Counted from the first letter of the stretch, positions 3,566-4,447 are shown. The stretch is 64,000 nucleotides of DNA from Acidobacteriota bacterium (GCA_040754075.1 JBFMDH010000001.1:166262-230261); one strand, 5' to 3'. Notes: generated by a model not told the origin, from the letters alone. Made by a program: numbers and translations.

Positions 3566-4447
3566 TTATTGTTTGCGAATTTTGGCAAGGTGTTTCAAAA
3601 ACGTTTCAGCGTCTTTGGCTTTAAGCGCCAGCGCAAAAAGTTTTTCGAGCAAGGCGGCATCGTTGATAGTTGCGATTTTTGTTTCGATGTCGAGACCGGG
3701 AAATTTCTGCTCTACGAGCATCAGTAACGCTTTGGCAATGCCTTCGCGCTCGCCGATTTGTTCGCCTTCTTCAAGCACCATCTGATAGAAACTCGATTCT
3801 TTTAATTCTTGTAAGGGAATCATACCTTTCTCCAAAATCATTTCCAGCAAGCGGACTCGATTATAACGCAACCCGCCCGGCATAAGAAAGTGTACGCCTA
3901 AATCGCGTTGCTTCTGTTTGTCTTTCACAGCGCGGAGGAGTTTAGCGCCGACTCTTAAATCCTCCGCGTCGCCTTTCATCAGCGGAATGAACGGCAAAAT
4001 CCCTTCACGTTTGAGCGCCAGGAAATCTCTCGCTGAACACTCCCAGATTTTAGTCAGGCGAAATGATGATTCGATTTTAAGCGAACCGGCGCGAATAATG
4101 CCTGAATGTGGAACCGTTTTTGGTAAACCGCGTTTCGTTGGTAACAGAATATTGCTGTAAACCGGTAAGCGATATTTCATCCATAAACGCGCGTCATAAT
4201 CTGGCATTCGCTCAAGCAACTCGGCTTTCCATTCAATCTAGGCTTCAGGGTGTACAATGATCTCTTTACCTCCGCGTCGCACCAAATAAACCTGATCAGT
4301 GAGTAAAGTCGAAACACTCAATTCAAGCGGCAACGGTTCAATCTCTGCCCGTTCACCGGGTTTCAAGTAACCAAGAAGAATTAAAAGCGATTCGGCATCC
4401 TGTTCAGCAAAATATTTGAATGCCTGATCATAAGGTTTCGTGCTCAA
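3566..4447 (-). pseudogene. Rpn-family (YhgA-like PD-(D/E)XK) putative transposase with DUF4351-like C-terminus, copy A, interrupted by a single in-frame TAG
   Basis: Two same-frame ORFs (4238..4447, 3566..4219) separated only by TAG at 4238..4240, where paralog B has Gln; about 70-75% identical to the 13337..14302 copy; C-terminal EGExxGxxEG-type repeat; TTG start overlapping the stop of the M20 gene. Confidence 0.6.

Follow-up and report, generated by a model that had tools for sequence, protein, structure and literature searches.

Two diverged acidobacterial Rpn-like paralogs with an amber-interrupted long frame and an intact internal short frame

The stretch of DNA analyzed here, which we refer to as the window, comprises 64,000 nucleotides of a 529,644-bp contig of an Acidobacteriota bacterium (JBFMDH010000001.1:166262-230261). 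It contains two paralogous long frames on the minus strand, copy A and copy B, and a tblastn search found these to be the only copies of their kind in the 64-kb window (table 1). An earlier sequence-only reading of this DNA had located both genes correctly and had placed their identity at 70-75%; the measured values are lower, at 55% for the proteins and 67.5% for the DNA over 696 nt. The alignment of the two copies includes a 12-residue gap in a block of short repeats, where copy A has about three repeats fewer than copy B.

Table 1. Long frames, short frames, and associated sequence features of copies A and B, in window coordinates
Feature	Position	Strand	Description
Copy A, Rpn-like long-form (L) frame	3566..4447	minus	293 codons, single interruption; from translation
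Copy A, first codon TTG	4445..4447	minus	overlaps TGA of the upstream M20-peptidase-like ORF (cTTGAgc)
Copy A, in-frame TAG, codon 70	4238..4240	minus	Q of the E68-x-Q70 nuclease motif; aligns to RpnA Q84
Copy A, internal Shine-Dalgarno GGAG	3830..3833	minus	6 nt before the S ATG; TTG GAG AAA GGT ATG; duplex -6.4 kcal/mol
Copy A, short-form (S) ORF, intact	3566..3823	minus	ATG at 3821-3823 to TAA, 85 aa; its ATG falls in the Met209 column, which is invariant
Copy B, Rpn-like long-form (L) frame	13337..14302	minus	321 codons, single interruption; from translation
Copy B, in-frame TAG, codon 195	13718..13720	minus	Tyr in GGLRYN, a motif that is nearly invariant; the S start is 13 codons further on
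Copy B, internal Shine-Dalgarno GGAG	13685..13688	minus	6 nt before the S ATG; GTG GAG AAA GGT ATG
Copy B, short-form (S) ORF, intact	13337..13678	minus	ATG at 13676-13678 to stop, 113 aa
Copy B, 12-nt tandem repeats	13560..13623	minus	encode GERK GEKR GEKK GERR GEIK, first helix of S; Tandem Repeats Finder

Each long frame is interrupted by one TAG codon, and the two interruptions lie at different sites. The translation of copy A around its stop reads IIVHPEA*IEWKAELL and that of copy B reads LMLGGLR*NREDLL; codon reading confirms the earlier observation that copy B has CAG where copy A has TAG and that copy A has TAT where copy B has TAG. Both sites are occupied by a conserved sense codon in 76 intact relatives, of which at least 90% have Tyr at position 195 and most have Gln at position 70, with the adjacent E68 and A69 likewise conserved in at least 90%. 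The family codons at these columns are TAC or TAT for Y195 and CAA (24 sequences) or CAG (18 sequences) for Q70, such that each TAG in the window is a single base change away from the family state. The earlier statement that no other lesions are present is correct in that neither copy has an additional stop codon or a frameshift. It overlooks changes of another kind in copy A. The first codon of this copy is TTG, whereas in nearly all of the listed family members that position, five codons ahead of the KPYDQ Tyr, is ATG; in addition, copy A deviates at 4 of 53 strongly conserved N-terminal columns, with L103P and L190P among the deviations. The TTG start and the two Leu-to-Pro changes point to a slightly older relaxation in copy A. 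Copy B deviates at only one of the 53 columns and retains D7, D51, E68, and Q70.

Both copies are situated directly behind an ORF on the same strand. Copy A overlaps the upstream M20 peptidase-like ORF by 4 nt (window 4444-4447), and a gap of 9 nt (window 14303-14311) separates copy B from an upstream 4-alpha-glucanotransferase-like ORF; each copy would be cotranscribed with the ORF that precedes it. Scans for sigma-70 promoters and terminators around both copies, including the regions near the S starts, returned nothing above the shuffled expectation, and one promoter-like match in copy A was dismissed because it overlaps the S ATG itself. The preceding ORFs are of the housekeeping type, there is no recognizable defense island around either copy, and PADLOC found nothing relevant.

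The sequence-only reading had assigned both genes to the Rpn/DUF4351 family, an assignment that holds solely via their relatives and profile comparison. Pfam and NCBIfam searches with the repaired proteins gave nothing useful even at E<=10, and at this threshold neither copy matched the PF04754 (Rpn) or the PF14261 (DUF4351) model. When repaired copy B was used as a database query, we retrieved 122 relatives, typically of 290-335 aa, which originate almost entirely from Acidobacteriota/Blastocatellia MAGs and from soil or groundwater metagenomes, and many of which bear the JGI name "predicted transposase YdaD." The orthologs of rpn genes have been defined as COG5464 (Zhong et al. 2023, PMC10400941). 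Among 78 members of the present family, PF04754 (Transposase_31) matches a single sequence, and weakly so (E=0.008), and DUF4351 matches the C-terminus of nine, with a best E-value of 3.9e-15; copies A and B are not among the nine. In hhalign, the family aligned over 210 columns to a profile of 28 Rpn sequences with E=1.2e-4 and a probability of 55%, and to the single RpnA sequence with a probability of only 3%. A sequence-profile search of the PDB returned a single match, to Prp8, which was judged spurious.

In the profile alignment, family residues D7, D51, E68, Q70, and R80 correspond to D11, D63, E82, Q84, and R94 of Escherichia coli RpnA. The D...E-x-Q motif of PD-(D/E)XK nucleases is thus present together with the N-terminal Asp and the Arg, and at least 90% of members retain D7, D51, E68, and R80. 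In RpnA, the substitutions D11A, D63A, E82A, and Q84K abolished all three phenotypes, whereas R94A abolished recombination and left toxicity in place (Kingston et al. 2017, PMC5350276). An AlphaFold2 model of an intact relative (P0002; pLDDT 89.3) has a core of beta-sheet and helices at residues 1-135, followed by a helical linker and then by one long and three short helices. The credible Foldseek matches of this core are all PD-(D/E)XK nucleases, namely NucS/EndoMS, Bax1, XisH, MspJI, and PaqCI, with probabilities of 0.96-0.98 for the best of them, such as NucS/EndoMS, and weak E-values of 0.03 or above. Based on the motif, for which the evidence is good, and on the scores, for which it is only moderate, we suggest that the family is a remote branch of Rpn. 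The earlier label of putative transposase or mobile-element nuclease is outdated for such proteins, as Rpn proteins are now described as toxin-antitoxin defense nucleases (PMC10400941).

The family is multicopy and patchily distributed, mainly in Blastocatellia and other Acidobacteriota. Several MAGs carry four to six copies (e.g., JBOGOL01 and JAYUCP01), and two members (P0095 and P0020) are in tandem on one contig (L082, 69-776 and 885-1847); rpn genes are likewise reported to be duplicated in tandem and to vary in copy number. We had considered P0095 as a possible remnant of the copy A type and rejected it, since the contig end cuts this sequence. Outside the Acidobacteriota, four distant members lie within a row of about 5 kb on a scaffold of the cyanobacterium Aphanocapsa sp. 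(L072/L159; JAHHGS010000139/JAESGG010000015), which constitutes a tandem array of remote Rpn-like genes. There is also a subclade (e.g., P0038, P0041, P0044, P0056, and P0086) in which Trp replaces Gln at the Q70 column to give HVEAW. Because the RpnA Q84A variant kept toxicity and lost recombination, members of this subclade may have an altered activity.

Several features of the family recall the organization described by Zhong et al. (2023, PMC10400941), in which an rpn gene encodes a full-length toxic nuclease, RpnL, together with a short antitoxin, RpnS, which corresponds to the C-terminal part and is translated from a start codon inside the gene that has its own ribosome-binding site. In that system, a variable number of four-residue repeats begins 8-20 residues after the S methionine, and the C-terminal domain is, in the proposed model, the part through which L pairs with L and with S. 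The short form is also encoded outside the full gene, either by a separate DUF4351 gene or by an additional copy further downstream; ypaA, which follows rpnE in E. coli, is one such stand-alone gene (PMC10400941). We aligned the codons of 43 intact genes of the family and of copies A and B and computed the pairing of each column's upstream sequence to the 16S 3' end. The strongest anti-Shine-Dalgarno pairing of all 304 columns is found upstream of an invariant methionine, Met209 (-9.1 kcal/mol vs. a mean of -2.1 +/- 1.7 kcal/mol), where GGGAGG, AGGAGG, or GGAGG is located 6-7 nt before the ATG. In the six codons that precede Met209, 43 of 47 Arg codons are AGR, compared with 105 of 1170 elsewhere in the same genes; Gly is similarly skewed, with GGG at 24 of 43 positions before Met209 and at 143 of 821 elsewhere. 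This codon skew indicates constraint at the nucleotide level and not a by-product of the protein sequence. The start of the L frame, unlike the internal start, is almost devoid of a Shine-Dalgarno sequence across the family (mean -1.6 kcal/mol).

Copies A and B both keep GGAG-N6-ATG and an open S frame, and their Shine-Dalgarno sequence (GGAG, -6.4 kcal/mol) is weaker than that of most relatives. Some 18 residues beyond Met209 begins a block of repeats (EGRK, GLKE, and similar units) whose length differs widely from member to member. Extra stand-alone S ORFs are found downstream in seven loci (L025, L055, L088, L099, L102, L127, and L141). Based on these sequence signals, the family shows the RpnL/RpnS architecture, with an internal start that is conserved at the level of sequence, and the locus is a clean example of it with good computational support. 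This toxin-antitoxin framework accounts for the anatomy of the two copies better than the transposase label does.

In all seven loci, the second S-like ORF, which consists of the C-terminal domain only and usually has fewer repeats, comes directly after the full gene (e.g., L025, 863-1117; L055, 689-982), and these ORFs mirror the RpnSs genes of E. coli such as ypaA. Apparent C-terminal insertions and frame changes in three other loci proved to be runs of N and were not counted as lesions. These assembly gaps lie inside the 12-nt S repeats (L017, approximately 2965-3067; L024, approximately 2557-2660; L062, approximately 3805-3906), and their exact coincidence with the repeat block indicates that repeat number is systematically under-resolved in short-read MAGs. 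In each of the close pairs (L094/L095/L088/L089/L008/L093/L049/L113), the synonymous divergence of the S part is approximately 1.3-4 times, and mostly 2-4 times, that of the N-terminal part; in one example it is 0.92 in S and 0.23 in the N-terminal part, with low dN/dS in both. This suggests recombination, domain swapping, or a different history of the C-terminal module.

The annotated proteins correspond to fragments only: NCBI gives a 213-aa remnant for copy A (AB1757_00645; P0096) and a 194-aa N-terminal part for copy B (AB1757_00700; P0001). Copy A can yield at most a 69-aa N-terminal peptide or, alternatively, a remnant of 213-217 aa. As the remnant is without D7, D51, E68, and Q70, the product would be catalytically dead in either form. 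Copy B can yield a nuclease domain of 194 aa that lacks the C-terminal domain. A truncation of RpnD that removes the last 45 residues strongly reduces its activity (PMC5350276), and the C-terminal domain mediates pairing in the RpnLS model; the copy B fragment is thus probably inactive. The stop codon of copy B lies 39 nt before the S ATG, so that S should be translated as before or even through coupling to the termination event.

To place these lesions in context, we surveyed about 110 loci that hold close members of the family, drawn from metagenomes and from the genomes of species representatives; the source MAG itself falls outside the representatives. Lesion positions were numbered by the best family query of each locus and therefore agree with copy B numbering to within a few residues. 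Nonsense lesions among the relatives comprise TAA at the same Tyr codon as in copy B (L008) and at codon 110 (L093), TAG at codons 177 (L043), 151 (L050), 161 (L111), and 44 (L118), and TGA at codon 182 (L049). Frameshifts occur in L036, L046, L052, L057, L131 (two), and L152, and two further loci (L081 and L083) have a +1 frameshift inside GGLRYN, three codons upstream of codon 195. The nuclease core is deleted in L126, L133, and L141. Among the broken loci, those that have an in-frame stop or one frameshift bear no second lesion, and in most of the broken loci checked the Shine-Dalgarno sequence, the ATG, and the S ORF are intact.

In this DNA-based census, every one of the 16 point lesions and three deletions is located before Met209 (P=0.002; P=0.017 when the poorly alignable C-terminal end is discounted). 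Such a distribution is what a gene within a gene predicts, because a hit in the shared C-terminal part removes the antitoxin and may leave a toxic nuclease, whereas an upstream hit removes the toxin only. That the S region is free of lesions shows that a first hit is tolerated only when it falls before the internal start, and is not in itself proof that S-only loci persist over the long term. In the N-terminal part, dN/dS is 0.05-0.20 in three broken relatives that have close intact partners and 0.07-0.13 in intact pairs. The two ranges are indistinguishable, and the lesions are thus young and presumably short-lived, so that the intact S frames could in part reflect this youth. Five of the 16 point lesions fall at positions 172-195, including four independent hits at 192-195 (P=0.03, calculated post hoc), and this clustering just before the internal start is suggestive only. 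Codon 195 was considered as a programmed site and is not compelling on its own, given nine nonsense events and the small number of codons that are one step from a stop.

Based on these findings, we think it probable that copies A and B are diverged acidobacterial Rpn (COG5464, YhgA-like) paralogs in which the toxin frame has recently been knocked out and the S frame left intact. In an intact member, the full frame would give the long form L, a predicted PD-(D/E)XK DNA endonuclease toxin, and the internal Shine-Dalgarno sequence and the ATG at Met209 would allow separate translation of the C-terminal helical domain, S, which bears the variable four-residue repeats and would serve as the antitoxin. 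By analogy with the characterized systems, we infer that L is toxic in the acidobacterial family and that S counteracts it. Copy A would have lost its nuclease through a single CAG to TAG substitution at the catalytic Gln and copy B through a single TAY to TAG substitution at the Tyr of GGLRYN, both upstream of the internal start, and these premature stops would remove the full-length nuclease from both copies. With the ribosome-binding site, the start codon, and the S ORF intact, S is probably still made from the two broken genes. The earlier suggestion of recent, independent knock-outs of nuclease genes is supported by the conserved sense codons at both sites, by the single step that leads from them to a stop, and by the mixed kinds of lesions in relatives.

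The sequence-only reading had offered a second explanation, that UAG is read through or suppressed so that full-length proteins are made, and the two interruptions do share the same codon in frames that are otherwise open. We regard this as extremely improbable. TAG terminates 14 of the 38 long ORFs in the window, and neither a tRNA search of the 64-kb window nor an Rfam search of its whole length returned a match. The two TAG codons stand for different amino acids, Gln and Tyr, at sites where relatives have sense codons, and relatives are also broken by TAA, TGA, frameshifts, and deletions. Furthermore, there is no excess of amber codons: including the window copies, the nonsense lesions comprise six TAG, two TAA, and one TGA, compared with an expected TAG share of 47-49% among single-step nonsense mutations calculated from family codon usage (P approximately 0.2 for at least six of nine). 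Because CAG can reach a stop in one step only as TAG, TAT and TAC can reach either TAG or TAA, and about half of the hits are expected to be TAG, the shared codon is no meaningful coincidence. Programmed amber suppression and pyrrolysine decoding resemble the present case in having an in-frame UAG within an otherwise open frame; they differ from it in that no dedicated machinery is seen in the window, where UAG is a common terminator, and in that different residues are replaced and relatives use other stops and frameshifts. There is therefore no sign of readthrough, both TAG codons are ordinary single-base knock-outs, and the amber codons of A and B, which give no evidence of recoding in Acidobacteriota, can be set aside as a false lead. 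It is also very improbable, though somewhat less so, that the TAG codons are assembly or consensus errors or minority alleles of a population in which the real genes are intact. The source is a MAG, each protein fragment occurs on just one contig, each lesion is a single substitution, and the young lesions of relatives likewise all come from MAGs or metagenomes. Stop-creating substitution errors in two paralogs on one 529-kb contig are nevertheless unlikely, the other long ORFs of the window are open and uninterrupted, and the TTG start and the two Leu-to-Pro changes of copy A are consistent with a real relaxation of constraint.

The remaining explanations accept the knock-outs and differ in what has become of S. 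Both copies could be plain decaying pseudogenes, dead as a whole, in which S is open only because the lesions are recent. The youth of the lesions that could be tested in relatives, the single lesion per broken locus, the slight extra decay of copy A, and the lack of a detectable promoter for S in our scans all fit this explanation, and the upstream bias could also arise if damage to S kills the cell for as long as L is intact. We nonetheless consider it unlikely, since lesions confined to the region upstream of Met209 are unexpected for neutral first hits, most broken loci checked retain the complete set of S signals, and stand-alone S genes occur both in the family and in E. coli (PMC10400941). 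In the case of copy B, the stop at codon 195 could instead represent a selected functional split that creates a two-cistron module of a 194-aa nuclease and a separate S. The site is a recurrent one: codon 195 is TAG in copy B and TAA in L008, and L081 and L083 have their +1 frameshifts three codons before it; lesions cluster in this region, the N-terminal part of copy B is otherwise pristine, with its motif residues kept, and the short distance to the S ATG fits termination-reinitiation. Against this, the RpnLS model leaves an L protein that lacks its C-terminal domain unable to pair with S (PMC10400941), and the behavior of truncated RpnD (PMC5350276) makes an inactive product more likely. 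In addition, the kinds of lesions differ, resembling loss rather than design, L081 and L083 both derive from a single Logan sample and may owe their frameshifts to misassembly, and the cluster statistic is post hoc; we find the split improbable. A broader proposal is that loss of L just upstream of the internal start is a recurrent, selected event that leads either to an orphan S locus or to a split nuclease and S module. Lesions would be favored there since transcription and translation of S are spared, and S-only loci could confer immunity, or act in anti-addiction, against incoming cognate Rpn toxins. We put this forward as a speculation that is rather unlikely to be correct.

The RpnLS systems of E. 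coli and Clostridioides difficile (RpnA-E; COG5464; PF04754 with PF14261/DUF4351; PMC10400941) share with the acidobacterial family the nuclease motif residues, an internal Shine-Dalgarno sequence and ATG for a C-terminal helical domain (in the present family a sequence signal), variable four-residue repeats encoded by 12-nt units at a similar distance from the S methionine, and downstream stand-alone S genes behind some copies. Both are multicopy and patchy, and mutations that inactivate L arise readily in both. The acidobacterial sequences differ in being so divergent that the two Pfam models miss most of them, in having GGLRYN where enterobacterial Rpn has PDDEI, and in forming a branch that is mainly confined to Blastocatellia and other Acidobacteriota. 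The window copies themselves differ further, in that their L frames are broken and only S can be made, and in that they lie directly behind housekeeping genes and not in a defense island. Stand-alone DUF4351 (RpnSs) genes such as ypaA (PMC10400941) consist of the short C-terminal-domain protein alone, and the broken copies would functionally reduce to that state, although their S frame is still inside a recently broken L and is not a separate, duplicated gene.

The RpnL/RpnS design has so far been established experimentally only in E. coli and C. difficile, and a literature search for follow-up work later than 2023 on RpnS, DUF4351, or COG5464 yielded only the original paper and a commentary on it. 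The conserved internal Shine-Dalgarno sequence and ATG, together with the skewed codons before them, represent a clear nucleotide signature of this design in a family that dwells in soil, is very divergent, and escapes the standard domain models. Genes of this family are frequently found with the putative toxin frame broken and the putative antitoxin frame open. In such cases annotation pipelines label the fragments "hypothetical protein" and overlook the short ORF.

Elsewhere in the window, a region of about 1 kb (10539-11559) contains no ORF of 150 aa or more and no Rfam match. Within it are two arrays of 7-nt tandem repeats, ATTGCGG in 2.7 copies at 11382-11400 and CAATCCG in 3.6 copies at 11523-11547, and the two repeat units are roughly reverse complements of each other.
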